In this document: in pieces, positions 31,920 to 47,910 of the stretch | Layout: each line of letters starts with the position of its first letter | How positions within the stretch are numbered: the stretch's first letter is position 1 | DNA from: Thermoanaerobaculia bacterium | GTDB taxonomy: Bacteria > Acidobacteriota > Thermoanaerobaculia > Multivoradales > Multivoraceae | Assembly: GCA_963666565.1 (NCBI GenBank) | Contig: OY762911.1 | Span: forward strand, 1,951,497-2,015,496 | Direction of reading: 5' to 3' | Length of the DNA: 64,000 nt | Translations under genes and position numbers: made by a program | The notes under the pieces: model-generated | What the model was told of the DNA's origin: nothing | Database searches by the model: none | The model's input: the letters and a program-made list of their open reading frames with translations, nothing else

Positions 31920-34900
31920 TCACGGCGCCCTCGCCTGATCGTACGCCCGCCTGAACACGACCTCGGACATCCACCGCTTGAAGCCGTCGTTGTCCATGAA
32001 CTGCTTGAACAGCTCAGTGTCGTCCTTCATCACGTTCTGCATCGCGCGGAGCAGGGCCCGGTCGTGCTCGATGCGGGTGTTCTCGCGGTCGGAGTTCCGG
32101 CGAGCGTTGCGAAAGGCCGCGTCGGAGGCGACCCTGGCGGGAATGTCGAACGCGATCATCCGCTGGACGCGGTCTTCGTCCGCCCAATCATCCGCTGGAC
32201 GCGGTCTTCGTCCGCCCATTCGATGCCGCCGAAGTGGTCGTTGAACGCCTTGACGATGTTCGAGAGGTGGTCCAGTTCGGGTTCCGGCCGGTGGCCGTCG
32301 CCGGCGGGGGGCGTCGGCTCGACCTCGGCGTCCTCGTCGGGCAGGAGGATCTTCCGGATCGCCTGTTTCTCGGCCCGGTAGCTGTCCATGTCGACCGCGT
32401 CGAGGATGCCTCGCGCGAGATCCTCCTCCCGCGGCGCCGGCAGCTTCGGGATCAGGAAGTTCAGGAAGATCGACCGCTTCTCCCAGCCGGCGTTCGAGAA
32501 CGGGAGGATGGAGGAGAGGAAGCCGTAGGCGCGCGCGAACGCCTTGGCCTTTCCCTTGAAGTCGACCTGCCCGTCCTCGTCGAGTTCGCTCAGGTAGACC
32601 GCGACGCACTCGTCGAGGATCGGGTCGAGCCGGTCGCGCTCGGCGCCGTCCAGATAGCGCTCGACGAACAGGTCGACCTGCTCCGCCGAACAGACCTGCG
32701 CCGCGTCGAGGCCAGCCTGCAGGTCGTGCAGCCGGTCGGGGTCCGGCTCGTCGGCCAGGATCGTGCCGCGGTAGTAGTTCGCGAACGAGTCGCGGATGAT
32801 CTCCGTGTCGTTCAGGAAGTCGAGCACGAACACGTCGTGCTTGCCGGGGTGCGCCCGGTTGAGCCGCGAGAGGGTCTGCACCGCCTTGATGCCGGCAAGC
32901 GTCTTGTCGACGTACATCGTGTGCAGCAGCGGTTCGTCGTAGCCGGTCTGGAACTTGTCGGCGCAGACCAGGAACCGGTAGGGGTGTTCCCGGATCTTCG
33001 TCGCGATCCGGCTGGACGGGAAGCCGTTGAGCGAGGCTTCCGTGACCCTCGCGCCGCCGTATTCGTGCTCGCCCGAGAAGGCGACGATCGCCCGGTACGG
33101 GCTCTTCCTCGCGTCCAGGCAGTCGCGGATGGCGTGGAAGTACTGGATCGCGCGCTGGACGCCGTTCGTGACCACCATGGCCCGCGCCTCGCCGCCGATC
33201 TTGCGCGGCGCGGCGACCCGGTCGTGGAAGTGGTCCGCCACGATCTCGGCCTTCAGCCGGATGGCGTGGTCGTGCCCCTCGACGAAGCGCCGCAGCTTCC
33301 GCTGCGCCTTCTTGACGTCGAACTCCGGGTCGTCCTCGACGCTCTTTGCGAGCCGGTAGTAGCTCCTGACCGGCGTGTAGTGCTTCAGCACGTCGAGAAT
33401 GAAGCCCTCCTCGATCGCCTGCTTCATCGAGTAGGTGTGGAAGGCGCGGCGCCTGACCGTGCCGTCGGGTTGCGGTTCGGGAACTCCGAAGAGCTCCAGC
33501 GTCTTGTTCTTGGGTGTTGCCGTGAACGCGAAGTAGCTGGCGTTCGACAGCATCTTGCGCGACTCCATCAGGCGGTTGATCCGGTCCTCGTAGGTCTCCT
33601 CCTCGCCGCGGGCGCCGGCTTCGGAGAGGGCGCCCGAGACCGCGGCGCTGGTCCGGCCGCCCTGGCTTGAGTGGGCCTCGTCGATGACGATCGCGAACCG
33701 GCGTCCGCGCTGCTCGTTGCCGATGGCGTCCAGGACGTGGGGGAACTTCTGGATCGTCGTGATGACGATCTTCTTGCCGCCTTCGAGGAACTGGCGGAGG
33801 TCCGCCGAGCGGTCGGCGTGGCCGACGGTGGCGCCGACCTGCGCGTACTGCCTGATCGTGGCGTGGATCTGGCGGTCGAGAATGACCCGGTCCGTGACGA
33901 CGACGATGGAGTCGAAGACCGTGCCGCCGCCGCTTCGTCCCTGGGAGTTCGGGTCGCCGCCGCGCCCGTCCGGCCCGCTCGGTCGATGGTCCTCGGCCTC
34001 TTCGGCGCGCGGCTCGACGTCGCGGTTGCCGCCGCGCCGCTCGAGCCCGATCAGCCGGTGGGCCAGCCAGGCGATCGAGTAGCTCTTGCCGCTGCCCGCC
34101 GAGTGCTGGATCAGGTAGCGCCGGCCCGCGCCGTGCTCGGCCGCGTCGGCCAGGAGCCGGCGGACCACGTCGAGCTGGTGGTAGCGCGGCCAGATCTGCG
34201 TCTTCTTCTTCCGGCCCGTCTTCTCGTCCTTCGATTCGACGATCTGGGCGTAGTTCTCGACGATCTCCGTCAGGCTCTCACGAGTCAGGACCTCGCGCCA
34301 CAGGTAGTCCGCGGCCAGACCGTCAGGGTTGGGCGGGTTGCCGGCGCCATCGTTCCAGCCCCGGTTGAAGGGCAGGAACCAGGACGCCTTGCCTCGCAGG
34401 TGGGTGCAGAAGCGCACCTCCCGCTCGTCCGCCGCGAAGTGGACGATGCAGCGGCCGAACTCGAACAGCTTCTCCCGCGGGTTGCGGTCCTTCCGGTACT
34501 GCTCGACGGCGTCGCTGACCGTCTGCTTGGTCAAGCTGTTCTTCAGTTCGAACGTGACGACCGGCAGGCCGTTGACGAACAGCGCCAGGTCGAGCGCCAG
34601 TTGAGCCCGGTCGCCGCTGTAGCGAAGCTGCCGCGTGACGGTGAAGCGGTTCAGCTCGAAGCGTTGCCGCGCGGCCTCGTTGCCCTCCGACGGCGTGCCG
34701 TAGAACAGCTCCAGATCGTGCGCGCCGTGCCCGATGCCGTTCCGCAGCACGTCGATGGTCCCGCGCTTCGCGATCTCGCCCTGCAACCGGGCGAGGAACT
34801 TCCGCCGCGCCGGCCCGTCCTCGTCCAGGGCCAGGCCGTCCGCGGCGTCGGGCTGCGTGGCTTGGAGGAAGGCCGAGAGCTGGGTGAAATCGACGCAGTA

Positions 34901-35095
34901 GTTCCGGTCGTAGTCGCGGGGGTCGCCGGGGGTCCAGCCGGCGGTGGTGGGGGCCGTGGTGCGGGCGCTGCCGGAGGCGGGGCTCGGTTCGGCCGGTTGG
35001 GGGAGTTCGCCGGGCTTCGGCGGGTCGCAGGGGTGGCCGGTGAGGGCCGTGCAGATGAGGCGCTCGAGGCCGCGTTCGGACGTGTCGGTGGTCAC
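31920..35095 (-). pseudogene. hsdR: Type I restriction enzyme R subunit (HsdR), frameshifted about 75 codons before the native C-terminus by a 32-bp tandem duplication
   Basis: HsdR_N motifs (VVTFELKN), helicase motifs (SAGSGKSYS Walker A, DEAHSSQ motif II) and the C-terminal domain. ORF 32156..35095 ends ...EWADEDRVQRMIGRTKTASSG*. The native continuation ...WADEDRVQRMIAFDIPARVAS... to the stop at 31920 is in another frame (track ORF 31920..32609). Confidence 0.8.
32155..32218. repeat. 32-bp perfect tandem duplication (atcatccgctggacgcggtcttcgtccgccca x2) that frameshifts hsdR
   Basis: Direct reading: copies at 32155-32186 and 32187-32218. 32 is not a multiple of 3, and the duplicated peptide WADEDRVQRMI appears in both reading frames. 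Confidence 0.9.
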
Positions 35096-35134: not shown

Positions 35135-36280
35135 TCAGCCGTCACGACCGGCCGCCTCGCGGCGCTTCCCCAGCATGTTCCGATACACCGTGTCGGAAGT
35201 CGCCTTGACGTCCTCGGTGATGTCCAGCAGCGATTCGTCCTGGCCGTCGTAGGCCCGGAGAGAGCCGACAGCGTCGCGCATGGCGCTGCGCGCTTGCAGA
35301 AGGGACACGAGGAAGCGCCGGTCCATCGGTTCGGTGGCCGCGTGCGCCTGGTGCAGGGCGTATCCGGCTGCCAGGAGTTCCCGTGCCTCTGCGTGCGGAA
35401 GGACTTCTCCGAGCCGTTTGATGTCGGGGTTCATCGCGTGGACCGCAGGCGGGATGTCGCCTTGCCTCGAGCCGTAGATCCAGAGGAGCACCTCTCGAAG
35501 ACAGTCCAGCTTCTCCGCGGGGACGGGGTCGGGCCGCGGTTCGTCCGGCGGCCAGGTACGTGCCAGCCCGAGGTACTCCCGGTACTGCGAACGCGAGAGG
35601 GCGACGTACAGATGAGCGAAGCTGAACTTCGGCGTGTAGCGGTCCTCGATGTCGAACAGGCCCTCCCTGACTGCCTGCTCCAGTACGTAGACGGCGGACA
35701 CCATCCGCTTGACCGCGCCGTGGCGGTCGCCGAGCGCGCTGGCGATTCGCTCGATGCCGACGTCCCCTTCCCGGTACCAGTCCGTCGCGAACCGCGCCTT
35801 GGCGTAGGCGCTCCACTTGGCGGCGCCGTTGATGTGCTTGAAACCGATGAACGCCCGCGCATCCTCGCGCTTCGCGACCCGATAGACCGTCACCTCGTCG
35901 AGGGTGTGGCGGAGCGAATCCCGGACCTCGGGCACCGTGATCTGGAGCTTCTTCTCGGGGAAGATCCTGCCCGCCAGCCTGCTCGCCAACTCCGGCTCCC
36001 GCAAGAGCCTGAGCGCTGCGAGGCGGCGATTCCCCTCAAGGACGATCAACTCGTCGCTGCCGGCGGCGCCCATCGCGACCAGCGGTTCGATGTCGAGGTA
36101 GCCGTTCGTCGAGATCGACTGAAGCAGTTCGTCGAGTCCCGCGGAGTAGAGCCGGGCGATGATCGACTCCTCCGTGGCTCGCCTCCCTCGATCCGGGAAT
36201 CTCGGAGCCTCGCGGTCCAGGCGGAGTCGCTCGACGGGGACCTTCGCCGCCGTCCCAACTCGTGACTGCGCCTCGTGCAT
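35135..36280 (-). CDS. ParB/Sulfiredoxin-fold (ParB-like nuclease domain) protein, encoded 40 bp upstream of hsdR on the same strand
   Basis: ParB N-terminal domain signature (DELIVLEGNRRLAALRLL; compare the ParB GERRxRA box), then about 250 aa of helical sequence. ATG at 36280. The track ORF 35135..36352 is slightly longer. Confidence 0.6.
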   Translation of the reverse strand: MHEAQSRVGTAAKVPVERLRLDREAPRFPDRGRRATEESIIARLYSAGLDELLQSISTNGYLDIEPLVAMGAAGSDELIVLEGNRRLAALRLLREPELASRLAGRIFPEKKLQITVPEVRDSLRHTLDEVTVYRVAKREDARAFIGFKHINGAAKWSAYAKARFATDWYREGDVGIERIASALGDRHGAVKRMVSAVYVLEQAVREGLFDIEDRYTPKFSFAHLYVALSRSQYREYLGLARTWPPDEPRPDPVPAEKLDCLREVLLWIYGSRQGDIPPAVHAMNPDIKRLGEVLPHAEARELLAAGYALHQAHAATEPMDRRFLVSLLQARSAMRDAVGSLRAYDGQDESLLDITEDVKATSDTVYRNMLGKRREAAGRDG

Positions 36281-36399
36281 GACGCCGGCTATCTTAGACG
36301 CAGGGGCCCGTGGGTGTCGCGGTGGCCAGTGAACCCGGCTCCAGGTCGGCAAGTGCCCAGGGCGTCACCTTTGGCCCGGCAGCTTCCGCAGACGAGAAG

Positions 36400-39300
36400 A
36401 TGTGCATGGACTTGGAGACTGCACCCCGCGGTTCAACGGTGGTGTACTGTCTCGCCTTCCGTGACCTTGGAGGAACGAGGTGGGGGTGCTTGCCGGCGCG
36501 CCGGCGAACTTTCCGGCCCGAGTACGTCGAGATGCCGTTACCAGGAGGGCCCGCTGCCAAGCTCGGTATCCGCTACGAGAAGTGGTGGACGCTCTCGGAG
36601 TTCGTTCGAATGCTCCACGGAGAGACAGACTCGATTCGGCTGGAGGAGCCCGGTCTTGATGCAGCAGAGTTCGTTGTGAGGAACGGCTCGCAGCGCGAGT
36701 TTCATCAGGTAAAGCGCCGCAACCCGAGCGGGAAGTGGAGCTTGCCAGCGCTTAAGTCCGAAGGTGTTCTTCAAGCGATGGGGCGGAGGCTGGCCAACAG
36801 CGCCGACTGCTTTGTCTTCGCATCAAGCTCTGACGCGCCGGAGCTCTCCGATCTGTGTGACACCGCTGGCGGATCAGCTTCAATCGAAGAGTACCGACGG
36901 GTCTTCCTCAAAGCCGACTCGCGCCGAGAGCCCTTTGACGAGCTGCGCCGAGCGTGGGGCTGCAGCCTTGAGGAGACGTTCAATCGGCTGCGGCGAATCG
37001 AGGTCAGTACGATCAACGAGCGCGAACTGCGAAAGACCGTCGAACGAGGGTTGCGGGCACTCTTCATCTCGAACCCGGCCGACGTGGAGAAGACGCTACT
37101 GGCGATGGTCGATGACTCCTTGCATCAGACCCTTACACGCCAGGGACTTAGGGAGACCCTCACCCGTAGCGGCTACCAGATGCGGCACCTCAACAACCCA
37201 GAGGACGCGGCCGGGGCCGTACGACGAGCGACCGATGATCACTACCTCGTGAGGGCCCAGAAGCGGCTCATTCAAGAGCGACTCGTTCCAACGGACGCCG
37301 CAAGGGTGGTGCTTTCTCGCCTGGGCGAAACGTCGACGGACCTTGTCCTGGTTGGGAAGGCCGGCGTCGGCAAGACGGCCTGTATCGTTGAGGTAGTGCG
37401 CGCCTTGCGAGAGCAGCGCGGTATGCCAGTCTTGGTCTTTCGCCTCGATCACCATACGTCGGCACGGTCCACTAGAGAGATTGGCCAGCAGTTGGAACTG
37501 GAGGAGTCGCCCGCGTTCGTTCTGGCCGCCGCAGCGGAGTCCGCGAACCGGTCTGGCGTTCTGATCGTGGATCAGTTGGACGCGGTCAGCACGATGCCTG
37601 ACAGGGGGTCCGGCGCTCTTGATGTGGTTGAGGCGCTGCTTGACGAGACCCGAGGCCTTCGGGCGCGGGTTCCCGTTCACACGATAGTCGTGAGTCGGGA
37701 GTTCGATTGGGAGCACGACCCGCAGCTTAGGGGGCTTGCCGCCAAGTCCGCGGGGCCGGTCAAGGTCACGGAGTTCCATGTGGCCCAGGTCAAGGAGATC
37801 CTGGCGGACGCTGGTTTCGATCCGACACTCTTCGGGGAGAATCAACTCCAGGTCCTACGGCTCGCGCAGAATTTGTCGCTGTTCTTGGACACCGGTTTCT
37901 CTGCCTCCTGCGCTCCGGCGTTCCGCACGGCCAAGCACCTGTTCGACCGATACTGGTCCTACAAGCAGCGAGTGGTTGACAGGAGAGCGGGGAATCTAGC
38001 GGGCCGCTGGACCGAGATCGTGCGGAGGGTCTGCGACGAGATGACGTCGTCTCAGCGTCTCGCGGTTCCGAAGGAGAGGCTCGACGAAGTGCCAGAGGAC
38101 TATCTGCAACAGATGGCGTCGGAGGGCGTGCTGACGTTCGACGGCCACTGCTACGGCTTCGGGCACGAGAGCTTCTTCGACTATTGCTCCGCGCGTCTGT
38201 TTTGCGGCCGGTCGGAGCGACTTGTGTCGTTGTTGACGGGTGCAGAGCAGCATCTTTTCCGACGTTCCCAGGTGCGCCAGGTTCTGGTCTACCTTCGCGA
38301 CGAGGACTTCCCCAGGTACGTGGAAGAGGTTGGTGAGCTCCTCTCGGATGAGGGGATTCGCGTCCACATCAAGCATCTTGTGTTCGCGCTCTTGGCTGGT
38401 GTCGAGGAGCCGAGGGCTGAGGAGTGGGCGATCTGGGAGACGTGGATCGGACCAGAACTGAAGGCGATCGAGGCCGATGCACAAGGTCAGAACGCGTTGT
38501 CGGCCCTCGCGTGGCGGTCGTTCTTCGTTGCAGGCTCGTGGTTCCGCATCGCCGATGACCGCGGGAAGGTCGAGGAGTGGCTTGGCGGCCGTGGAGACCA
38601 GCTCGGCGACTTGGCGGTGAGATACCTCTTGGCGCATCATCGCCACTCGCCTGATCGAGTCTCGGCTCACCTCAATCCGTATGTCGACTCCGGCGGTCGG
38701 TGGCCCCAACGCTTTCTGTACTTCATGGGGCGCGTCCAGCACGGCGCCAGCAGATCACTCTTCGAGCTGTTTCTCCGTTTGGTGGACAACGGTGTACTGG
38801 ACGATGGCCGGGCGATGTTCGCCTCCAACGAGACGTTCTGGGACATGCTCCGGGATCTGAAGGAGGATCGGCCGGAGTGGATTGCTGAGGCGCTCGCCCA
38901 CCGGCTCCGACGCCGGCTACGACTCCGCCTTGAGGACGATTCGGACGCCTATCCAGGACGGCTCCTGGGCAACCACGGCTCGGGCTCCCGCGTGTTTGTG
39001 AAGTCGGCTGCGAACGCTCCCGCTGCGTATGTGAAGCACGTCCTGCCGGCGGTGCTTGAGGTCGTCGATTCGACGGTTACGGGGGAGAAACCGCCGAGGC
39101 GGGATACGGTTTGGTTTCTCCTTCACGAGTTCAGCCATCTCAGTGCCGACGAGACATGTCTGAAGTGCCTCGGCCAAGCGCTGGCGACGGTGGCTCAGGT
39201 CGATAGAAGATCGGCAAGAGAGCTGATTGCCGACTTGCGAGGGCGAGATAGCCACACGGCGAACTACCTGCTATTGGCGCTCTATCGGGGGGAGCCAACC

Positions 39301-41046
39301 CGGTATGCCGACGAGGCAATGTCACTGCTGTGTGAGGAACCCTGGCGACTTGAATGCGGCGCAGGCGGTAACGGATGGTGGTACGCGATGGAGACGATCC
39401 GGGCGACCTTTCCTCACTGTTCTGCGCCCACACGTGCGAGGCTCGAGGCACTGATTGTCGGACATGCCGACTGGTTTGAGCGGACCAAGGAAGGCCGACA
39501 ATCGGAGGGTCGTGCTCGGTTCGCCCTCCTTTCGGCAATCCCTGCGGATCTCCGCGGCAGGCAAGCGCATAAGCACTTTCAGGAGTTGGAGCGGAAGTTC
39601 GGGGAACCTCCGGGGAAACCACGCGGGCCGGAGGGCGGTCTCGTTGGGCCTCCGATACCTGCCGAGTCCACCGTCAAGATGACGGATCAGCAGTGGCTTC
39701 GGGCCATCGCGAAGCACTCCGCCGAGTGGTCGCCTCGCCGTTATTCACGGAACATACAGAAGGGCGGTGCGCGGGAATTGGCGGGAACTCTGGTCGAACG
39801 CACCCAGGAGGAACCAGAGCGGTTCGCTCGTCTGTGCCTGCGTTTCCCGGCCGATGCGAACCCCGCCTATCTCGACGGCGTCTTGTCTGGCCTGAAGGAG
39901 GCTTCGATAGCGAATGAGTTGAAGCTCCAGGTCTGCCGCAAGGCGTTCGGTGAGGCTTTCGATTACTGCGGTCAGTCGGTAGCGGACGTCCTCGGTGGCC
40001 TTGAGTCTCCAGTCCCGGCGGAGGCCATGGGGATGCTTGACCGGCTTGCGACTGAGCACAGTGATCCCAGTTCGGAGGCGTGGCAGAAGAAGACGGCGGA
40101 CGGTCGTCGAGTCTTCAACGGCGACATCTACTGGAGCGGTATCAACTCGACACGTGGACAGACAGCCCTTGCGGTCGCCAAGCTCATCTCTGCGGACGAC
40201 TCGTGCCTGACGCCGTTCCGGCCGACCCTTGATCGGATGGTCGAGGACGAAAGCCCGGCCGTCGTTTCTTGCGTCATTGGCACGCTCTTGGCCGTTGCCT
40301 ATCACGAGCCCAAACTCGCGCTGCGGCTCCTCGGAAGAACGAACCTGTCCGAGGTCCGGCTGCTCGCTACTCGGCACGCTCGACATCTTCTTCACGGCAC
40401 CCTGCATCGGAACTTCGACCAGGTCCGCCCGTTTCTCAAGCGCATGATTCAGTCGTCGGAACCGGAGGTCTGCCAAGCAGGCGCTCGCTTGCTCAGCGTC
40501 GCGGCGCTGAGCCACGAAGGAGCGGCGGAGCTTGTAGCGCGGTGTCTCGGGGGCAGCGCCGCCCACCGGCTCGGTGTGTGCGAGGTGGCCGCTGCCAACG
40601 TGGCCGACTCGGAGTGTGGGGCGTGGTGCGAGCGAACCCTCTCGGAACTGTTCGATGACGCCGATGCCAATGTCCGAAAAGAGGCTGCGACCTGCTTCCG
40701 GCATGTCGAGAACGAACCGCTCGAAGAGTACGCGGACCTGGTCCAGGCGTTCTGTAGCAGCAGGGCCTATCGCGACGACCCGTTCTGGCTGCTCGACGTC
40801 TTGGAGACGGTGCGAGGTCGACTGCCGGGCGTAACGATCATGGCCTGCGAACGGTTCTTCGACCGATTCGACGGGCTTGAGCAAGGCCGGACTCGTGGGC
40901 TCCGTACGATTGTCAAGCTGATCTTCCGGGCGTACCAGCAGTACGAGCAAGAGAGTTGGGGTCAGCGGTCACTGGATCTCATCGACAGACTCTGTCTTGA
41001 AGGCATCTACGAGGTCGGAAAGGAACTCGATCACTTTGATCGGTAG
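36400..41046 (+). CDS. Giant P-loop NTPase (NACHT/STAND-like) with an N-terminal putative PD-(D/E)xK-like domain and about 1000 aa of C-terminal alpha-helical repeats; candidate antiphage Avs-like protein
   Basis: Walker A LVLVGKAGVGKTACIV, then Walker B VLIVDQLDAV (hhhhDxxD, NACHT-like), about 70 aa downstream. The N-terminal region carries a D...(E/Q)xK pattern (LEEPGLDAAEFVV...REFHQVK). The long C-terminal region is ARM/HEAT-like helical with no enzymatic motif. Start is ATG at 36400 or 36406, or GTG at 36310. Confidence 0.6.
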   Translation: MCMDLETAPRGSTVVYCLAFRDLGGTRWGCLPARRRTFRPEYVEMPLPGGPAAKLGIRYEKWWTLSEFVRMLHGETDSIRLEEPGLDAAEFVVRNGSQREFHQVKRRNPSGKWSLPALKSEGVLQAMGRRLANSADCFVFASSSDAPELSDLCDTAGGSASIEEYRRVFLKADSRREPFDELRRAWGCSLEETFNRLRRIEVSTINERELRKTVERGLRALFISNPADVEKTLLAMVDDSLHQTLTRQGLRETLTRSGYQMRHLNNPEDAAGAVRRATDDHYLVRAQKRLIQERLVPTDAARVVLSRLGETSTDLVLVGKAGVGKTACIVEVVRALREQRGMPVLVFRLDHHTSARSTREIGQQLELEESPAFVLAAAAESANRSGVLIVDQLDAVSTMPDRGSGALDVVEALLDETRGLRARVPVHTIVVSREFDWEHDPQLRGLAAKSAGPVKVTEFHVAQVKEILADAGFDPTLFGENQLQVLRLAQNLSLFLDTGFSASCAPAFRTAKHLFDRYWSYKQRVVDRRAGNLAGRWTEIVRRVCDEMTSSQRLAVPKERLDEVPEDYLQQMASEGVLTFDGHCYGFGHESFFDYCSARLFCGRSERLVSLLTGAEQHLFRRSQVRQVLVYLRDEDFPRYVEEVGELLSDEGIRVHIKHLVFALLAGVEEPRAEEWAIWETWIGPELKAIEADAQGQNALSALAWRSFFVAGSWFRIADDRGKVEEWLGGRGDQLGDLAVRYLLAHHRHSPDRVSAHLNPYVDSGGRWPQRFLYFMGRVQHGASRSLFELFLRLVDNGVLDDGRAMFASNETFWDMLRDLKEDRPEWIAEALAHRLRRRLRLRLEDDSDAYPGRLLGNHGSGSRVFVKSAANAPAAYVKHVLPAVLEVVDSTVTGEKPPRRDTVWFLLHEFSHLSADETCLKCLGQALATVAQVDRRSARELIADLRGRDSHTANYLLLALYRGEPTRYADEAMSLLCEEPWRLECGAGGNGWWYAMETIRATFPHCSAPTRARLEALIVGHADWFERTKEGRQSEGRARFALLSAIPADLRGRQAHKHFQELERKFGEPPGKPRGPEGGLVGPPIPAESTVKMTDQQWLRAIAKHSAEWSPRRYSRNIQKGGARELAGTLVERTQEEPERFARLCLRFPADANPAYLDGVLSGLKEASIANELKLQVCRKAFGEAFDYCGQSVADVLGGLESPVPAEAMGMLDRLATEHSDPSSEAWQKKTADGRRVFNGDIYWSGINSTRGQTALAVAKLISADDSCLTPFRPTLDRMVEDESPAVVSCVIGTLLAVAYHEPKLALRLLGRTNLSEVRLLATRHARHLLHGTLHRNFDQVRPFLKRMIQSSEPEVCQAGARLLSVAALSHEGAAELVARCLGGSAAHRLGVCEVAAANVADSECGAWCERTLSELFDDADANVRKEAATCFRHVENEPLEEYADLVQAFCSSRAYRDDPFWLLDVLETVRGRLPGVTIMACERFFDRFDGLEQGRTRGLRTIVKLIFRAYQQYEQESWGQRSLDLIDRLCLEGIYEVGKELDHFDR

Positions 41047-41176: not shown

Positions 41177-42550
41177 TCAGGGGAGCGCAACGGCCGTGTG
41201 GCGCACGTCAAGCTTCCCGGTGACCGCGTCGGCAGTCACTCGTGCGCGGAACTCGCTGAGAAGGGCGATGTGGCGGTGCGTGCGGTCGATTGCGGCTGCG
41301 TGTCGGTCCGTGACTTTCCGGCAGAACTGCGCGATGGCGACCTGCTCGGGCGGCGGTGGCAGGCAGACGCGCAACCGCGAGACGATTTCGGCATTCAGGT
41401 TGGACATCGTAGAGCCGACCGATGCGAGTTCGAGTGCATCGCGGGTGCGTGACGAGTTCAGAACGAGAAGGAGGTAGTCGGGCGAACAGACCGTCTTTCT
41501 TGCCCGGAGTCGCAGGCTGCCAGTACCGCAGATCCAGCCTGCTTGGGCGGAACGCACCAGGGCGGAGCGACCGACTTCGCCGCGCCGGGCGATGACGACG
41601 TCGCCAGTAGCGAGTCGGTGCCTTGAGAGTTCCGCCGCCTTCCGTCCGGTGACGGCTATGGAGCGATCTGGCGCTATCCTGCCTTCGCTCAGGTGCGACG
41701 GATTGATGACGGGAACGCCGCCGTCGATGTACTCGTCGGCATGGAGTTGACTACCGAACGGCCCGGTCTGAATCGAGTTCGACGCTGTGCCAAGTGCAAG
41801 TTCAGGCCAGTGCGCCGGCACTTCCGTCAGCCATTCGACCTCCGATTCCTTGTATTCGAGATAGGGCTGGCCGGTCCGGACGTCGATCTGGCCGGTGACG
41901 GCCTGATGCACGATGGCCTGTTGCTGCTCCTCCAGCAGCCCGATCAGCTTCTCCTTCTTCCGAATGGCCCGACGGATGTGCCGGTCGATGTAGTCGAGAA
42001 AGCGGGCGATGGCGGTCTGTTCGGCTAGCGGAGGCAGCGTTAGCGGCAGGTCTCGCCAGCGTTCGGTTGGAAGCCTGCGCGTGCCATGCCCTGCTTCGTC
42101 GATCAGAGGAAACAGGCCGTCGCGAGCGCAAGCGAGGAACGACGCCAGATAGGCCGCGTTGAGCGCGGGACAGGGGCGTAGGGCTTTCATGTCCTGGTTG
42201 ATCGTTACCGGCGAGGTCGTTCTGGCGATGGGCACTCTGCGGGCAAGGATCATTCCGCGGACGACCATGAGCACGGCGGGAGGCTGAACCAACCGAAGTG
42301 CGGTTTCGGCGAGTGCGGCGTCTGTGACCCGCACACGCGAATCGCCGATCACCATGGTCTTCATGTCCTTCGGCGTGACCCATGGAATGTCGCCGTTCCA
42401 GAAGCGACCGTCTTCCATGCTGGGCGTCATTCCTCCCGAGATCGAGGCGCATTGCCGGAGCTTCCTCATCTTCCAATGCGCCGGTACCTCGCCCAGCCAC
42501 TCCACGCCGGAGTCCTCGTACTCGCTGTAGGCCTCCAGCGCGTGCGTCAT
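41177..42550 (-). CDS. hsdS: Type I restriction-modification specificity subunit (HsdS), two target-recognition domains
   Basis: Two TRDs are separated and followed by conserved coiled-coil regions (LAEQTAIARFLD..., PPPEQVAIAQFC...). The ATG at 42550 overlaps the upstream stop (ATGA). Confidence 0.85.
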   Translation of the reverse strand: MTHALEAYSEYEDSGVEWLGEVPAHWKMRKLRQCASISGGMTPSMEDGRFWNGDIPWVTPKDMKTMVIGDSRVRVTDAALAETALRLVQPPAVLMVVRGMILARRVPIARTTSPVTINQDMKALRPCPALNAAYLASFLACARDGLFPLIDEAGHGTRRLPTERWRDLPLTLPPLAEQTAIARFLDYIDRHIRRAIRKKEKLIGLLEEQQQAIVHQAVTGQIDVRTGQPYLEYKESEVEWLTEVPAHWPELALGTASNSIQTGPFGSQLHADEYIDGGVPVINPSHLSEGRIAPDRSIAVTGRKAAELSRHRLATGDVVIARRGEVGRSALVRSAQAGWICGTGSLRLRARKTVCSPDYLLLVLNSSRTRDALELASVGSTMSNLNAEIVSRLRVCLPPPPEQVAIAQFCRKVTDRHAAAIDRTHRHIALLSEFRARVTADAVTGKLDVRHTAVALP

Positions 42551-42903
42551 TCCTCGGACTGCTCGGCAGGTACCTTGGGTTCAATGGCTGGCTCGCTCTC
42601 GCCATGCCACCTTGTGCGTTCCATGAATCGGCGGAGGATGGGGTCCGTTGGGCGATAGTCCCGTATCCAGGCGTTGATCTCGCCGTTGGTCATGTCTTCG
42701 AACTTCCTGCTGAGGCGTTTCCGTTGCTCCCGCTCGTAGGCGACGCAGTCGAAGTCGTTCTCCTCTCTCTTGGCCGTCACTCCACCGGGGCCTTTCTGAC
42801 GCCCGAGTCCGCTACGAGGCGAAGCGGAAGGAGCTTGGCTCTCGGCGACCGCTCCCAGATACGACGGAGGATGGGGTCCGTGATCTCCCGGTTGTTCCTC
42901 CAC
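42547..42903 (-). pseudogene. Remnant of the PIN-gene 3' region (tail domain only), translationally coupled to hsdS
   Basis: ...FDCVAYEREQRKRLSRKFEDMTNGEINAWIRDYRPTDPILRRFMERT is homologous to the C-terminal tails of the PIN copies. Its stop overlaps the hsdS ATG. Confidence 0.35.
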
Positions 42904-43511
42904 TCCACCTGCTCCTCGGGAGTCATGGCTTCTAACTTCCGACTGATGCGGTCCCTCTGCTCGCGCACGAAGCCGACGCAGTCGAAGCTCTTGTCGTTCG
43001 GGTCGCGGAAGTTCTCGCCCAGGATGGCCGGAGGCTCGTACATCTTGATCCGGGGATGACCGAGTTCCCGGTTGACGGCGTCGAACTTGGGCCCGCGGCG
43101 GAAGTTCAGCAGGTGCTTGTAGTTCCAGCTCGCAAGCATGTCGACGTTTGCGAGCGTGGCGAAGGCGACGTGCAGGGCGGCGGGTCGCGCGGCCGGGTCC
43201 AACGCGCCCGCCTCGATGTAGCGGTCGGCGAGTTCCTCGGCTGCTCCCGACGGCTCCAGGAGCTCCGAGTGCTCCCGCGGCACCGTACCTAGCAGCGCTC
43301 TCGCGGCCTCGGTCGCCGCGTCCAACTCGCCCACGACCGCGGCCGACAGGACGAGGGTCATGTCGGCGGCACGGAACCCCTCGAACAGAGCCCGGGACGA
43401 CTCCCTGATCCAGTACTTCTCGTCCTCGCAGGCGGAGAACACGGAGGAGTCGACGTACACGCGGGGCGTTTCCGGCCAGGACGGAACCGGGTACGTCGTC
43501 TCAGCGGTCAT
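42777..43511 (-). CDS. PIN-domain nuclease-like protein with a C-terminal extension (distal copy C)
   Basis: PIN signature: N-terminal Asp (RVYVDSSVF), the acidic residues, and the C-terminal T/SxNxKH-type motif (NVDMLASWNYKHL). The ATG overlaps the stop of an hsdM C-terminal fragment. Confidence 0.6.
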   Translation of the reverse strand: MTAETTYPVPSWPETPRVYVDSSVFSACEDEKYWIRESSRALFEGFRAADMTLVLSAAVVGELDAATEAARALLGTVPREHSELLEPSGAAEELADRYIEAGALDPAARPAALHVAFATLANVDMLASWNYKHLLNFRRGPKFDAVNRELGHPRIKMYEPPAILGENFRDPNDKSFDCVGFVREQRDRISRKLEAMTPEEQVEWRNNREITDPILRRIWERSPRAKLLPLRLVADSGVRKAPVE

Positions 43512-43690
43512 CGTCCACCTCTTTCGACGGACCGGGCGCCATGCCGCCCATGATCTGGGCCAGCAGGCCGTCGGTCATCGTCTCCAGCGTCAGGCTGTCA
43601 GCCTGGAACTCCGCCAGCGGCCGCATGGGCTCGGGCCTGTAACAGTAGCGGTCGAAGCCGATCTCGTAGCGGGTCTTCATGGTGACTGGA
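43501..43690 (-). pseudogene. Duplicated hsdM 3' terminal fragment (encodes the last ~59 aa of HsdM)
   Basis: MKTRYEIGFDRYCYRPEPMRPLAEFQADSLTLETMTDGLLAQIMGGMAPGPSKEVDDDR aligns to the HsdM C-terminus (VKTSYEISFNRYFYKPEPMRPLAEIQADILALETQTEGLLAEIMGGMVPGPSKEVDDDR). Confidence 0.6.
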
Positions 43691-44130
43691 GTTGTACCAC
43701 GCATCGGCGGCTCAGGGCACCGCCTCGCGGCGCGGCAACGCCTTGATGCCGCCGTTCTTCGATCCCTGTCGCGGAGGTTCGCCGCGGTCTTGTTCGGCCG
43801 CGCCAGCAGGCGGCCCAGCGGTTCAGGCCGGGAGATCGTGATCCTCGGAGGGCGTGTCCTGCACGCTGGCATTGCGATCCCGCAGGCGCTCGACAAGACG
43901 CCGCAGCTTCGGGTCTGTCGGTAGGTAGTTGCGCATCCAGGCGCCTATCTCGTCGCTGCTCATGCCTTCGAGCTCCTTGCCGGCCGCGGCGATCACGGCC
44001 GCCGCAGCCAGCCTCAAAGCCTCGAACCGGCTCAAACCGTCTAGACACGCGCAACGGTCGCGGGCCTCGCCTTGCCGGCGACCGCCCGGCCAAGCACTGC
44101 GGCGAGGGACCGTGATCGCTCAGACAGTGG

Positions 44131-44475
44131 TTAGCGGAGATGCTCGCGCAGAGAAGCGCCGGGCTTCGGCCAGTCGTACCACGATTCCCAGAACACGCCC
44201 TTTGTCCCGCTTTCGCGTCGCGTACACCCAAAGTGCAGGCGGGTCCCCTCAAGGTATCCGCTGACGCGGTGCGGCTTGTCAGTAACGACGTCCAAGCCGA
44301 ACCCCGTCGCGCTCTCTATCCCCGCGAGACAGCTTGCGAGCGTCGCCCGCTCGGCACCCATTGTGATCGTTGACGACTCGCCGCCGCACGCGACGACCAC
44401 AGCGAAGCCGACGCTCACGACCGCTACTAGCGCCAAGCGGCGCACGTTCCCTAGCGCTTTCTCCATGAAAGCCAA
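44131..44475 (-). CDS. Small putative lipoprotein (114 aa) inserted within the degraded middle PIN copy
   Basis: Signal peptide with lipobox (LALVAVVSVGFAVVVACGG). The sequence is unrelated to the PIN module. Confidence 0.4.
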   Translation of the reverse strand: MAFMEKALGNVRRLALVAVVSVGFAVVVACGGESSTITMGAERATLASCLAGIESATGFGLDVVTDKPHRVSGYLEGTRLHFGCTRRESGTKGVFWESWYDWPKPGASLREHLR

Positions 44476-44987
44476 AGCGTATCACGCGGACCGCGACCGC
44501 GGCCGGGAGCTTCTTCCGCTGCTCGCGCTGGAAGGCGGCCTGCAAGGCGATGGGTCCCGTCGCCGCATCCACCGCGCTCCCTTCGACGTAGCGGTCGGCG
44601 AGTTCCTCGGCTGCTCGCGACGGTTCCAGCAACTCCGAGTGCTCCCGCGGCACTTTGTTTGGCAGGGCTCTCGCGGCCTCGGTCGCCGAGTCCAACTCGC
44701 CCGCGACCGCGGCCGACAGGACGAGGGTCACGTCGCCGGCACGGAAACCCCTCGAACAGAGCCCGGGACGACTCGCTGGTCCAGTACTTCTCGTCCTCGC
44801 AGGCGGAGAACACGGAGGAGTCGACGTACACGCGGGGCGTCTCCGGCCAAGACGGAACCGGGTACGTCGTCTCAGCGGTCATCGTCCGCCTCCTTCGACG
44901 GACCGGGCGCCATGCCGCCCATGATCTCCGCAGGCCCTCGGGCTGCGGCTCCAGGCTGTCAGCCTGGATCGCCGCCAGTGGCCGCAT
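44279..44987 (-). pseudogene. Degraded PIN-domain gene (middle copy B), frameshifted and with its central part replaced
   Basis: The N-terminus MTAETTYPVPSWPETPRVYVDSSVFSACEDEKYW (track ORF 44451..44987) goes out of frame. The middle (track ORF 44279..44731) matches the PIN central region (MTLVLSAAVAGELDSATEAARALP...), then diverges. Confidence 0.5.
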
Positions 44988-45176
44988 GGGCTCGGTTCTC
45001 TAGTAGCGGTTGAAGCTGATTTCGTAGCCGGTCGTCACGATCCTGGAGTTGTACCACGCGTCGGCGGCTCAGGGCACCACCTCGCGGCGCGGCAGGCCTT
45101 GCTGCCGCCGTTCTTGGATCCGTGTCACGAAGACTCGCCTCGACTCTGTTCGGCCGCCAGCAGGCGGCCCAGCGGT

Positions 45177-45902
45177 TCAGGCCGGGAGATCGTGATCCTG
45201 GGAGGGCGTGTCCTGCACGCTGGCATCGCGATCCCGCAGGCGCTCGACCAGGCGCCGCAGCTTCGGGTCTGTCGGTAGGTAGTTCCGCGTCCAGGCACCG
45301 ATCTCTTCGCTGGTCATGCCTTCGAACTCCTTGCCGAGCTTCTTCCGTTGCTCGCGCATGAAGCCGACGCAGTCGAAGCTCTTGTCATTCGGGTCGCGGA
45401 AGTTCTCGCCCAGGATGGCCGGAGGCTCGTACATCTTGATCCGGGGATGACCGAGTTCCCGGTTGACGGCGTTGAACCTGGGCCTGCGGTAGACGTTCAG
45501 GAGGTGCTTGTGGTTCCAACTCGCGAGTGTGTCGACGTTTGCGAGCGTGGCGAAGGCGACGTGCAGGGCGGCGGGTCGCGCGGCCGGGGCCACCGCGCCC
45601 GCTTCGATGTAGCGGTCGGCGAGTGCCTCGGCTGCTCGCGACGGTTCCAGAAACTCCGAGTGCTCCCGCGGCACCGTACCTGGCAGGGCTCTTGCGGCCT
45701 CGGTCGCCGAGTCCAACTCGCCCGCCACCGCGGCCGAGAGGACGAGGGTCATGTCGCCGGCACGGAACCGCTCGAACAGAGCGCGAGACGACTCCCTGAT
45801 CCAGTACTTCTCGTCCTCGCAGGCGGAGAACACGGAGGTGTCGACGTAGATGCGGGGTGTTTCCGGCCAGGGCGGTACCGGGTACGTCGTCTCAGCGGTC
45901 AT
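45177..45902 (-). CDS. PIN-domain nuclease-like protein with a C-terminal extension (proximal copy A, coupled to hsdM)
   Basis: The same PIN motifs as copy C (IYVDTSVF...NVDTLASWNHKHL), with a distinct C-terminal tail (...GAWTRNYLPTDPKLRRLVERLRDR). The ATG overlaps the hsdM stop. Confidence 0.65.
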   Translation of the reverse strand: MTAETTYPVPPWPETPRIYVDTSVFSACEDEKYWIRESSRALFERFRAGDMTLVLSAAVAGELDSATEAARALPGTVPREHSEFLEPSRAAEALADRYIEAGAVAPAARPAALHVAFATLANVDTLASWNHKHLLNVYRRPRFNAVNRELGHPRIKMYEPPAILGENFRDPNDKSFDCVGFMREQRKKLGKEFEGMTSEEIGAWTRNYLPTDPKLRRLVERLRDRDASVQDTPSQDHDLPA

Positions 45903-47910
45903 CGTCCACCTCCTTCGACGGACCGGGCACCATGCCGCCCATGATCTCGGCCAGCAGACCCTCGGTCTGCGTCTCCAGGGCCAGGATGTCGGCCTGGATC
46001 TCCGCCAGCGGCCGCATTGGCTCGGGCTTGTAGAAGTAGCGGTTGAAGCTGATCTCGTAGCTGGTCTTCACGGTTCTGGAGTTGTACCACGCATCCGGGG
46101 CCCAGGGCAGGACCTCGCGGCGCAGAAAGGCCTCGATGCCGCCGTCCTCCTGGAGCGGGATCTGCTCGGTGTCGCGGAGGCTCGTGTCCGGCTCGTACTC
46201 GACGACGGCGGTCCGGCCATCGACCTTCGCCTCGAACAGGCCGCGCAGCGGGTCGGCGGCGACGCCCCGCTTGTGGACCTTCCGGATCACCGGCGGCGCC
46301 TCTTCGCCCTCGCCGCGGACGCCAGTGGCCTTGAGTCCGCGGATCTCGGCGGCCTTGTAGGCGCGGCACCCGTCGATTCCCTCGATGCGGAGCGGCCGCT
46401 CGACGGTGACCTTCCAGTAGCCGAAGGCCTCGTTGTCGAAGACCTTGCTTTCCTCGGTCTCCTCGAAGGCGAGGAAGGCGTCGCAGATGCGGGCGATGTC
46501 CTCGTCGCCGAGTTCGCAGTTCTTCTTGCCGAGGTTCTTGCGCAGCGGCTGGAACCGCTTCGTGGCGTCGATGAGCTGCACCTTGCCCCGGCGGTGCTCC
46601 GGCTTGCGGTTCGTCAGCACCCAGACGTAGGTGGCGATGCCGGTGTTGTAGAACATGTTGAGCGGCAGGGCGACGATCGCCTCCAGCCAGTCGTTCTCGA
46701 CGATCCAGCGGCGGATGTTGCTCTCGCCCTGGCCGGCGTCGCCGGTGAAGAGGGAACTGCCGTTGTGGACCTCGGCGATCCGGCTGCCGAGCGGCGTGTT
46801 CCGCTTCATCTTGGCGAGCTTGTTGGCCAGGAAGAGCATCTGCCCGTCGCTGCTGCGGGTGACGAGGGAGAACTCCGGGTCGCCGCCGTGCTCGATCAGG
46901 AACCGCGGGTCGCGCATGTCCTTCTTGCCGCCCATGCGCGCGAGGTCCGTCTTCCAGCTCTTGCCGTAGGGCGGGTTGGAGAGCATGAAGTCGAACTCGC
47001 GGGCCGGGAAGGCGTCGTTCGAGAGCGTGGAGTGCTCCGGCCCGCCGACGATGTTGTCGGCGGCCGCTCCCTCGCCCTTGAGGAGAAGGTCGGCCTTGCA
47101 GATGGCGTAGGTCTCGGCGTTGATCTCCTGGCCGAAGAGGTGCGTGGAGACCTCCTTGCCGCGCTCGGCGGCGAGCGACTGGAGCACGTCCTCGGCCACG
47201 GTGAGGATGCCGCCGGTGCCGCAGGCGCCGTCGTAGAGGGTGTAGGTGGCGGACCGGAGTCGGTCGGCCACGGGCAGGAAGACGAGGTTCGCCATCAGCT
47301 TGACCGCGTCGCGCGGCGTGAAGTGCTCGCCGGCCTCCTCGTTGTTCTCCTCGTTGAAGCGGCGGATCAGTTCCTCGAAGATCGAGCCCATGCCGTGGTT
47401 GTCGAGGCCGGGGTGCTTCACGCCGCCGTCGCCGTCCGTCACCGGCTCGGGGCCCAGGTTGATGTCGGGCGAAGTCAGCTTCTCGATCAGCGTGCCGAGC
47501 GCGTCGGCCCGCGAGAGCCGCGGGATCTGGTTGCGGAACTCGAAGTTCTCGAGGATGTCCTGGACGTTCGGAGAGAAGCCGTCGAGCCACGCCTCGAAGT
47601 CGGCCCGGAGCCGCTGCCGGCCGGCGCGGGCGCGCAGGTCGCGCAGCGTGTAGCTGGACGTGTTGTAGAAGTCCTGCTTCGCCGCGTCCCGCAGGGTGGC
47701 GTCCTGGTCGACGATCTCGAGTTCGTCGAGAGTTGCCTTCACCTGCAGGACGTGCTGCTTGCGCGGCTCCAGCACCGCGTCGAGCCGCCGCAACAGGGTC
47801 ATCGGCAGGATGACGTCGCGGTACTTGCCGCGGACGTAGAGGTCGCGGAGGACGTCGTCGGCGATGCCCCAGATGTAGCCGGTGATCCAGCTCAGGGAGG
47901 CGTTGTCCAC
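45892..47910 (-). CDS. hsdM: Type I restriction-modification N6-adenine DNA methyltransferase subunit (HsdM)
   Basis: HsdM_N (IWGIADDVLRDLYV...DVILPMTLLRRLD), an AdoMet motif (YDGACGTGG) and the catalytic NPPY (LSNPPYG). Confidence 0.9.
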   Translation of the reverse strand: MDNASLSWITGYIWGIADDVLRDLYVRGKYRDVILPMTLLRRLDAVLEPRKQHVLQVKATLDELEIVDQDATLRDAAKQDFYNTSSYTLRDLRARAGRQRLRADFEAWLDGFSPNVQDILENFEFRNQIPRLSRADALGTLIEKLTSPDINLGPEPVTDGDGGVKHPGLDNHGMGSIFEELIRRFNEENNEEAGEHFTPRDAVKLMANLVFLPVADRLRSATYTLYDGACGTGGILTVAEDVLQSLAAERGKEVSTHLFGQEINAETYAICKADLLLKGEGAAADNIVGGPEHSTLSNDAFPAREFDFMLSNPPYGKSWKTDLARMGGKKDMRDPRFLIEHGGDPEFSLVTRSSDGQMLFLANKLAKMKRNTPLGSRIAEVHNGSSLFTGDAGQGESNIRRWIVENDWLEAIVALPLNMFYNTGIATYVWVLTNRKPEHRRGKVQLIDATKRFQPLRKNLGKKNCELGDEDIARICDAFLAFEETEESKVFDNEAFGYWKVTVERPLRIEGIDGCRAYKAAEIRGLKATGVRGEGEEAPPVIRKVHKRGVAADPLRGLFEAKVDGRTAVVEYEPDTSLRDTEQIPLQEDGGIEAFLRREVLPWAPDAWYNSRTVKTSYEISFNRYFYKPEPMRPLAEIQADILALETQTEGLLAEIMGGMVPGPSKEVDDDR

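Follow-up and report, generated by a model that had tools for sequence, protein, structure and literature searches.

The question raised by this locus is what is encoded by a long gene enclosed in a type I restriction–modification (R-M) operon. The window, i.e., the whole analysed stretch of 64,000 nucleotides, had been read earlier as containing here a candidate antiphage sensor of the STAND type with a helical-repeat C-terminus of a possibly undescribed class. Profile, fold and motif comparisons indicate that the gene is intact and probably encodes an Avs7-family antiphage receptor made of a single protein, with a Cap4-type nuclease, a STAND NTPase and a helical sensor (Table 1).

The open reading frame is uninterrupted on the forward strand from 36310 to the stop codon at 41044–41046. 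The start codon is most likely ATG 36532 ('MPLPGGPAAKLG'), in place of 36400 or 36310, which gives a product of 1504 aa; the N-termini of all homologues at up to 55% identity are located exactly at this codon, conservation begins at the same point, and the start was set here because the distant homologues all open with 'M(P/T)LPGG'. The length of 1549 aa from 36400, given in the sequence-only reading, was therefore corrected according to the homologue N-termini. Both ATPase motifs of that reading are present, but with the revised start they lie about 275–350 aa from the N-terminus and not at about 330 aa. The GC content of codon positions is coding-like (GC1 0.68, GC2 0.47, GC3 0.73) and, together with the uninterrupted frame and 733 homologue matches, confirms that the frame is a genuine gene. 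Promoter, terminator and tRNA scans gave nothing informative.

Table 1. Features of the predicted Avs7-family gene and of neighbouring genes (positions in the window; residues are numbered from ATG 36532).
Feature	Position	Strand	Basis or remark
Avs7-family gene (predicted), 1504 aa plus stop	36532..41046	+	ORF, homologue N-termini, family profile vs SeAvs7 9n00_A
Cap4-type PD-(D/E)xK dsDNA nuclease domain (putative effector), residues ~1–230	36532..37221	+	Profile, fold and motif matches
Predicted catalytic residues E16, E38, E46, Q59-x-K61	36577..36714	+	25-sequence N-terminal alignment
STAND NTPase module (nucleotide-binding, helical and winged-helix domains), residues ~245–560	37264..38211	+	HMM and Foldseek
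Walker A/P-loop G275-K-A-G-V-G-K281-T282 (GKAGVGKT)	37354..37377	+	Motif
Walker B L344-I-V-D347-Q-L-D350 (LIVDQLDAV)	37561..37581	+	R358 and R389 follow beyond this range
Winged-helix motif G-H545-E-S-F-F-D-Y with STAND 'MHD-like' histidine	38161..38184	+	Conservation
Alpha-solenoid sensor, Avs7/Dsr1 type (predicted), residues ~561–1504	38212..41043	+	AF2 model, HMM, hhalign
C-terminal helix '...ELDHFDR', residues ~1496–1504	41017..41043	+	Conservation and alignment
hsdR, type I restriction subunit	32156..35095	-	Pfam HSDR_N, SWI2_SNF2, ResIII, T1R_D3-like
hsdS, specificity subunit, in convergent orientation to the Avs7-like gene	41177..42550	-	Pfam Methylase_S, two stretches, E 1.8e-20
hsdM, methylase subunit	45892..47910	-	Pfam N6_Mtase E 1.8e-50, HsdM_N

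Comparison of a diverse family profile with PDB sequences showed a sole strong match, SeAvs7 of Salmonella enterica (E = 1.9e-69), represented by the entries 9N00, 9N01 and 9YIX in the apo and MCP/EF-Tu-bound forms; a less diverse profile matched SeAvs7 with E = 5.6e-22. SeAvs7, for which the structure and trigger were published in 2026, binds the HK97-fold major capsid protein of phages, tetramerises with ATP and degrades dsDNA via Cap4 (Lee et al., Nature 2026; PMC13581612). The match is composed of two collinear stretches, namely, residues 61–660 against SeAvs7 60–656, including the NTPase and winged helix (i-E 4e-43), and sensor residues 946–1500 against SeAvs7 943–1522 (i-E 9e-22). Identity to a SeAvs7-clade fragment is about 23% over 373 aa, its best-aligned part. 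The SeAvs7-clade sequences compared were fragments of up to 680 aa, which cover the N-terminal part and the last 650 aa of the protein, and the SeAvs7 fragments used as search queries were rebuilt from HMMER alignments. By these comparisons, the gene is a divergent member of Avs7. At the family level, the 1504-aa protein is not recognised as a named system by PADLOC v2, NCBIfam or Pfam.

The effector is represented by a predicted nuclease domain at the N-terminus. Cap4-type nucleases were the best nuclease fold matches of this domain, which has the Cap4 fold together with the acidic residues and the (D/E/Q)xK motif of that type; the hhalign probability against the Cap4 domain of the SeAvs7 clade is 95.9%, and Pfam Cap4_nuclease (PF14130) is matched by three of the 25 family N-termini. 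The N-terminal profile gave nothing significant against PDB sequences (AbpA, E 0.52). In an alignment of these 25 N-termini, whose sequences are 25–53% identical to the query, Q59 and K61 ('HQVKR') are invariant, and E16 of helix 1 ('RYEKWW'), E38 ('IRLE') and E46 ('AEFVV') are conserved in at least 90%. In the SeAvs7 clade, the counterparts of these nuclease residues lie in 'YQT', 'VDDVV' and 'CQCKK', and the PD-(D/E)xK/Cap4 pattern suggests that all five are catalytic. The nuclease fold and motifs proposed in the sequence-only reading were thus found, although the Mrr/NERD type named there gives way to the Cap4 type. No Mrr or NERD family of Pfam was detected in the protein or in the 25 family N-termini at E values up to 1.

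The central module carries the hallmarks of STAND proteins: a P-loop NTPase, helical and winged-helix domains, a conserved histidine, and effector and sensor modules. The Walker A and Walker B motifs, noted previously, are invariant or nearly so across the family; in a 77-sequence alignment, G278, G280 and K281 of the former and D347, Q348 and D350 of the latter do not vary, and the same is true of R389, H545 and D550. Walker A stands opposite 'GLPGSGKT' and the winged-helix motif opposite 'FGHQTLLD' of SeAvs7. The MHD-like histidine of STAND proteins is an ADP contact. The conserved residues K281/T282, D347, R389, R358 and H545 are aligned with SeAvs7 K292/T291, D358, R395, R367 and H545. In SeAvs7, T291/K292, D358 and R395 are ligands of ATP/Mg, and R367 was described as stabilising the autoinhibited state (PMC13581612).

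In the Foldseek search, the NTPase matched Avs4 (E 6.5e-10), Avs3 (1e-9) and the NACHT domains of NLRP3 and NLRP9 (~1e-6), with further fold matches to NOD2 and Avs5; Pfam AAA_22, AAA, AAA_16 and NACHT matched the region weakly. The ATPase, for which a KAP, BrxC or AAA+ placement had been considered beforehand, accordingly groups with these STAND proteins, and no profile or fold evidence for a KAP/BrxC-type ATPase was found. It is also most improbable that the gene encodes a STAND or AAA+ protein outside defence, such as a regulator or housekeeping ATPase, or is an inactive relic: the reading frame is intact and every motif residue of the nuclease and NTPase is conserved, the output is a Cap4 nuclease with no DNA-binding output domain, and the protein is homologous from end to end to an experimentally validated defence protein and has defence genes as neighbours.

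The sensor is represented by a helical-repeat region of about 940 aa, in line with the sequence-only reading. In the AF2 model of residues 591–1504 it is all-helical and resembles a HEAT/ARM solenoid (pLDDT 82.7; pTM 0.50). The sensor of Avs7 itself has two lobes and is sharply bent. An hhalign comparison of residues 871–1504 with C-terminal fragments of the SeAvs7 clade gave a probability of 99.9% (E 1.9e-35) over 612 columns, extending to the last residue; this comparison covers 871–1504, and residues ~660–870, most of the N-lobe, lie outside it. When this model was compared with PDB structures by Foldseek, generic HEAT/ARM solenoids were the only matches (CAND1, SF3B1, importins and mTOR; TM 0.2–0.35), and since the SeAvs7 entries were evidently outside the fold library, this search speaks neither for nor against Avs7. 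The C-terminal helix was modelled by AF2 at residues 1496–1503 with low pLDDT. F1502 and R1504 are invariant in a 58-sequence alignment, R1504 is conserved in at least 90% of a 77-sequence alignment, and the alignment with the SeAvs7 clade reaches the final residues ('...AAER'). In Avs7, the conserved C-terminal helix takes part in autoinhibition (PMC13581612). Since its homology to the Avs7 sensor spans at least 630 residues and reaches the C-terminal one, the region does not represent an undescribed sensor class.

By analogy with SeAvs7, the gene product would be active in defence and triggered by a phage capsid protein. In the resting state it would be an autoinhibited monomer with ADP, in which the C-lobe of the sensor and the C-terminal helix pack on the NTPase and the nuclease is sequestered. 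Release of the NTPase would be followed by ATP binding and tetramerisation, and the tetramer would bring the Cap4 domains together into an active nuclease, so that indiscriminate degradation of dsDNA would abort the infection. The step in which EF-Tu serves as cofactor may not apply to this protein, because the five contact positions of SeAvs7, namely, Q999, D1003, K1044, H1048 and D1059, hold other residues here according to the HMM alignments (H1013, Q1017, R1057, K1061 and N1074, respectively). The change of K to R is the sole conservative one, and the EF-Tu interface of SeAvs7 is thus not conserved; within Avs7 it is confined to one clade (PMC13581612).

The altered EF-Tu positions also bear on the trigger itself. 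On an Avs7-like chassis, the sensor of this environmental clade could read a different phage protein, or a perturbation of the host, in line with the identity of only 23% to the clade fragment, the position of the N-lobe (~660–870) outside the alignment, and the diversity of STAND sensors, which recognise many different phage proteins (PMC13581612). This is nevertheless unlikely: sensors as distant as those of Avs7 and Dsr1 both answer to capsid protein, recognition is by overall shape and not by specific contacts (PMC13581612), and the sensor homology extends through the 612 columns noted above. Capsid recognition is preferred as the predicted trigger.

The position inside a type I R-M island, proposed from the sequence, was borne out: the gene sits between hsdR and hsdS/hsdM, in a low-GC patch of the operon (GC3 0.73 vs 0.94 in hsdR). 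The divergent upstream gene of 405 aa, described earlier as a ParB-like nuclease-domain gene, is present, but its ParB-like nature is plausible and not established, since a very weak ParB/SerK-like similarity in NCBIfam (E 0.004–0.011) is far under the cut-offs and Pfam gave no match. Among the immediate neighbours in 76 homologous loci, R-M genes, OLD/AAA_15–21 ATPases, toxins, AbiJ and BrxL are enriched. No partner gene is universal across these loci, and because no neighbour is conserved, the gene is regarded as a single-gene system.

PrrC is a type of protein functionally coupled to a type I R-M system. Similar coupling here would mean that the protein is kept latent by the Hsd complex, or guards it, and fires upon an anti-restriction attack by the phage. 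The same placement between hsdR and hsdS/hsdM is found for a 75%-identical homologue (locus L001), hsdS is the immediate upstream gene in 6 of 74 homologous loci, and upstream gaps are 3–122 nt among loci with type I R-M genes, for example in the order hsdR-hsdM-hsdS-avs7 of L002. Such coupling is very unlikely, as no genes of a type I R-M system could be detected within 10 kb in at least 80% of the homologous loci, and the gene of the window lies on the strand opposite to all hsd genes. Moreover, several hsdS-linked loci (L002, L006, L010, L012 and L051) carry the same mobile module, with 83–96% identity in HsdR and HsdM, so the independent associations are few, and SeAvs7 is functional alone in E. 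coli (PMC13581612). For the subfamily as a whole there is a small chance of divergence from Avs7 either in sensing, with a non-HK97 capsid or other phage protein recognised without EF-Tu, or in control, as a PrrC-like restriction guard with the type I R-M operon.

The subfamily is large and horizontally spread. The homologue search returned hundreds of full-length sequences among its matches, many with 53–55% identity across 97% of the length, and at least 857 sensor clusters (50% identity) belong to the subfamily at E <= 1e-30. Nearly all hosts are uncultured bacteria, chiefly of soil and sediment lineages, including Latescibacterota, Acidobacteriota, Binatia, Verrucomicrobiota, Spirochaetia and others. 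Pelagicoccus sp. SDUM812002 carries one of the closest NCBI relatives (L060). Genes of the subfamily are repeatedly embedded in type I R-M operons.

The kind of sensor is already known from Avs7 and no new class of system is opened. An unannotated 'hypothetical ATPase' of 1500 aa becomes a predicted capsid-sensing immune receptor, the Avs7 family extends in divergent form to many uncultured lineages, and profiles built from this subfamily would name thousands of metagenomic proteins. It also offers a distant point of comparison for recognition of the HK97 fold, for the possible clade-specificity of the EF-Tu cofactor, and for the reasons why such genes lodge in type I R-M operons.

Among known systems, the parallel with Avs antiviral STAND proteins drawn in the sequence-only reading is upheld by the nuclease effector, NTPase, helical sensor and defence context. 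With regard to the Avs1–4 and NACHT clades, suggested there for comparison, profile scores place the protein in neither. For Avs2, the NCBIfam match has E 0.27 (9 bits vs a cut-off of 1000), the PADLOC match E 0.0023 in the P-loop region only, and the PDB entry 9o4e E 0.34; Pfam NACHT (PF05729) gave a partial match (E 0.0028) whose 17.9 bits fall short of the gathering score of 26.7, which argues against the bNACHT/NACHT clade. Avs3 and Avs4 (SeAvs3 8DGC and EcAvs4 8DGF) differ in that their sensors have no sequence-profile match to this protein and their triggers are terminase and portal, not capsid protein.

The best PADLOC match was the candidate PDC-M54A (E 4.5e-16; residues 312–452 vs profile 317–446 of 1621), for which no literature was found. 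Its profile length (1621–1657) and ATPase position (~317–446) are similar, and it is also matched by SeAvs7-clade fragments, but the match is limited to the NTPase and winged-helix region (about 130–330 residues), without sensor or nuclease. PDC-M54 is accordingly considered a related NTPase clade with no full-length match, to which the present protein does not belong. Cap4 of CBASS, LmuA of Lamassu and AbpA have no fused STAND sensor and are activated otherwise, through partner proteins or through cyclic oligonucleotides that are bound by a SAVED domain.

Dsr1 (defence-associated sirtuin 1) is assigned to the same sensor family as Avs7, with capsid protein also as a trigger (PMC13581612), and the likeness of the present protein to Dsr1 is drawn from that work. 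Dsr1 differs in that its effector is SIR2 and a STAND NTPase is absent. Eight shorter sensor matches were scanned for other architectures; all were STAND proteins, either truncated or lacking an effector, and SIR2 was found in none of them.

The closest counterpart is SeAvs7, which alone suffices in E. coli (PMC13581612). In SeAvs7 the acidic residue of nuclease strand 2 is Asp ('VDDVV' of its clade), whereas it is Glu in the present protein ('AEFVV'), and the subfamily described here is mainly of uncultured soil and sediment lineages, with the low identity to the clade fragment given above. The two proteins are alike in length (1504 vs 1523 aa) and in the collinear order of three modules, Cap4, STAND NTPase and helical sensor with the C-terminal helix; the Walker A/B residues, both arginines and the winged-helix histidine are identical, and both are single-gene systems spreading horizontally.

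The Avs7-like gene adds a new, divergent member to the Avs7 family, the structure and function of which have been characterised since 2026 (PMC13581612). For the whole protein, Pfam gave only sub-threshold matches to AAA, AAA_16, AAA_22, NACHT and HEAT, and NCBIfam nothing useful (Avs2, 9 bits against a cut-off of 1000); the best PADLOC match, the candidate PDC-M54A, was confined to the NTPase. Family profiles were also compared with the sequences of proteins of known structure. The 58-sequence profile matched one chain, 9n00_A ('AAA family ATPase', 1523 aa; E 5.6e-22), and the more diverse 77-sequence profile matched it with E 1.9e-69 in two collinear stretches (table), followed in the ranking by designed armadillo repeats and generic P-loops. 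Entries 9N00, 9N01 and 9YIX represent Avs7 of Salmonella enterica (SeAvs7), apo and complexed, from Lee et al. (bioRxiv, January 2026, then Nature, 29 July 2026; PMC13581612). The sequence-only reading, a NACHT/STAND-like ATPase of 1549 aa with a nuclease-like N-terminus, was essentially right, but the start and the type of effector are corrected here.

Features of the Avs7-like gene, its product and its neighbours (nucleotide positions in the window; residues of the Avs7-like protein)
Feature	Position	Strand	Remarks
hsdR	32156..35095	-	one side of the Avs7-like gene
405-aa gene	35135-36352	-	divergent upstream neighbour
Avs7-like gene	36532..41046	+	probable start
hsdS	41177..42550	-	other side of the Avs7-like gene
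Repeat-unit copy	42777..43511	-	intact ORF, 244 aa
Repeat-unit third copy	about 44451..44987	-	frameshifted
Repeat-unit copy	45177..45902	-	intact ORF, 241 aa; paralogue of the 244-aa ORF, 79% identical
hsdM	45892..47910	-	same side as hsdS
Nuclease conserved residues	E16, E38, E46, Q59, K61		invariant or >=90%
NTPase Walker A 'GKAGVGKT'	G278, G280, K281		invariant or >=90%
NTPase Walker B 'IVDQLD'	D347, Q348, D350		invariant or >=90%
NTPase arginines	R358, R389		invariant or >=90%
Winged helix 'GHESFFDY'	H545, D550		invariant or >=90%
C-terminus	R1504		>=90% (77-sequence alignment)
Profile 61-660	9n00_A 60-656		i-E 4e-43 (77-sequence profile)
Profile 946-1500	9n00_A 943-1522		i-E 9e-22 (77-sequence profile)

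On the + strand, the frame is open without interruption from 36310 to the stop codon at 41044-41046. GC content by codon position (0.68, 0.47, 0.73) is coding-like, and a protein search yielded 733 homologues, which are mostly about 1500 aa long and 53-55% identical over 97% of the length, a few reaching 72-78%; the ORF at 36400-41046 is therefore a real gene and not a spurious one. The GC content of the window is 63-75%, at which long spurious ORFs are common. The ATG at 36400, initially taken as the start, probably lies upstream of the true one: homologues at no more than 55% identity all open with 'M(T/P)L(P/L/R)GGPA.K.G', exactly where residues become conserved, so that translation probably starts at ATG 36532 and yields 1504 aa. 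Residues are numbered from this codon throughout.

In the AlphaFold2 model of residues 1-640 (58-sequence alignment; pLDDT 82.9, pTM 0.73), the N-terminal domain is alpha/beta, with a helix at 13-29 and strands at 34-37, 47-51, 54-61 and 93-98, followed by helices to about residue 230 and by a P-loop NTPase with helical and winged-helix subdomains. The model of residues 591-1504 is wholly helical (pLDDT 82.7, pTM 0.50). Conservation was scored in a 77-sequence alignment, at 28-55% identity to the query, and the invariance or at least 90% conservation of the listed residues (table) shows that the motifs first noticed in the sequence are real and under selection; in the 58-sequence alignment, the last residues F1502 and R1504 are invariant. 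A non-defence or defunct protein is very unlikely.

The effector is predicted to be a Cap4-type PD-(D/E)xK nuclease, based on three lines of evidence: the profile of the N-terminal 232 residues aligned with N-termini of SeAvs7-clade fragments (95.9% probability, E 5e-9, 211 columns), Pfam Cap4_nuclease was matched directly by three of 25 family N-termini (best E 1.6e-5), and the motifs 'RYEKWW', 'AEFVV' and 'HQVKR' correspond to 'YQTLVAFDW', 'VDDVV' and 'CQCKK' of the SeAvs7 clade. The Mrr/NERD effector suggested earlier is accordingly not borne out. For the NTPase, the best Foldseek matches were Avs4 (E 6.5e-10) and Avs3 (1e-9), then the NACHT domains of NLRP3 and NLRP9.

The subfamily is widely distributed: 79 loci with homologues at 35-59% identity turned up in species-representative genomes of Latescibacterota, Acidobacteriota, Gamma- and Alphaproteobacteria, Binatia, Verrucomicrobiota, Spirochaetia, Gemmatimonadota, Chlorobiaceae and others. 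Only one belongs to a cultured isolate, Pelagicoccus sp. SDUM812002, the rest being MAGs, which may be the reason why curated profile libraries do not name the subfamily. Relatives of the sensor among representatives of 50%-identity clusters number 2171 at E <= 0.001, of which 857 reach E <= 1e-30; among the best 150 of the 2171, most are of about 1500 aa and carry the sensor at the same place, the others being shorter proteins or fragments.

Immediate neighbours, analysed in 76 loci, are varied and rich in defence genes: upstream, Methylase_S (6 loci), ResIII, N6_N4_Mtase, Eco57I, type ISP and Mrr_cat_2; downstream, AAA_15/AAA_21/AAA_23 ATPases (9 loci), ResIII (4), Zeta toxin (4), BrnT, AbiJ and BrxL. 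Within these defence islands the gene behaves as a single-gene system, since no neighbour is common to all 76 loci. PrrC is an analogue for a protein coupled to a type I R-M system; such coupling is suggested by the recurrent adjacency to hsdS, but it is highly improbable here, since the Avs7-like gene lies on the strand opposite to the hsd genes in the window and R-M genes are missing from the majority of homologous loci. No more than about 12-15 of the loci have detectable type I R-M genes nearby, and several of these are copies of a single mobile module. Locus L002 (4390-17424), as well as L006, L010, L012, L051 and partly L018, carries a composite block of hsdR-hsdM-hsdS-avs7-like and, after it, an AAA_15/AAA_21 ATPase of about 575-590 aa; HsdR and HsdM of this block are 83-96% identical between MAGs placed in Latescibacterota, Syntrophobacterales and Binatia, and a partner of the ATPase, of about 314 aa, was detected in most of these loci. 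The AAA_15/21 ATPase is the commonest downstream neighbour (9/76), and the block appears to be a defence island of several systems that moves between phyla.

In the window, GC content is 63% at 36-44 kb against 69-75% in the flanks, and GC3 is 0.73 for the Avs7-like gene and 0.76 for hsdS against 0.94 for hsdR and 0.96 for hsdM, which suggests that the central part of the R-M operon was acquired or exchanged after its two ends, and that the Avs7-like gene was inserted later into it. The closest syntenic relative, a metagenomic contig (L001), carries a 75%-identical homologue in the same arrangement, with adjoining HsdR and HsdM 87% and 94% identical. There, an ISL3-family transposase gene (14735-15727) lies directly downstream of the Avs7-like gene, and hsdM is flanked by PIN and PhdYeFM toxin-antitoxin pairs. 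The 405-aa gene, labelled ParB-like at first, has very weak NCBIfam similarity to ParB, as well as to SerK, but far below the cut-offs (E 0.004-0.011), and no match in Pfam; among the fetched loci its homologue (78% identical) was found in L001 only, and the gene is therefore no conserved partner. Between hsdS and hsdM (42600-45950, - strand), a unit of 0.4-0.8 kb occurs in three direct copies, 86-97% identical. Its ORFs have no match in Pfam or NCBIfam, although the motifs 'RVYVDSSVF' and 'HVAFATLANVD.LASWN.KH' look PIN-like; in L001, the homologous segment overlaps the C-terminus of an 820-aa HsdM.

Comparison with SeAvs7 extends to individual residues. K281/T282, D347 and R389 align with K292/T291, D358 and R395, the ATP/Mg ligands of SeAvs7, and R358 with R367, which reportedly stabilises the closed state (PMC13581612); H545 aligns with the histidine of 'FGHQTLLD'. 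A SeAvs7 sensor fragment was rebuilt from HMMER alignments and used as a query for C-terminal fragments of its clade, with which residues 871-1504 aligned by hhalign (99.9% probability, E 1.9e-35, 612 columns) up to the terminal '...ER'; the sensor is thus homologous to that of the SeAvs7 clade, and not of a new class as had been suggested. A C-terminal helix of conserved length, involved in autoinhibition, is a feature of Avs7 homologues (PMC13581612).

The conserved nuclease motif, NTPase ligands, R358 and C-terminal helix fit a scheme of the SeAvs7 type. By homology with SeAvs7, the protein at rest would be an ADP-bound, autoinhibited monomer; the sensor lobes would clamp a newly made monomer of HK97-fold capsid protein, and the freed NTPase would then take up ATP and drive assembly of a tetramer, in which the Cap4 domains would form an active nuclease, degrading dsDNA and aborting infection. 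That this divergent clade responds to a different trigger is unlikely. Capsid recognition may proceed without the EF-Tu step, judging from the residues at the interface, which is confined to one Avs7 clade (PMC13581612): in our own mapping, the SeAvs7 contacts Q999, D1003, K1044, H1048 and D1059 correspond to H1013, Q1017, R1057, K1061 and N1074. The gene is of value for annotation, for showing how widely the family extends in uncultured bacteria, and as a distant point of comparison for capsid recognition and EF-Tu dependence.
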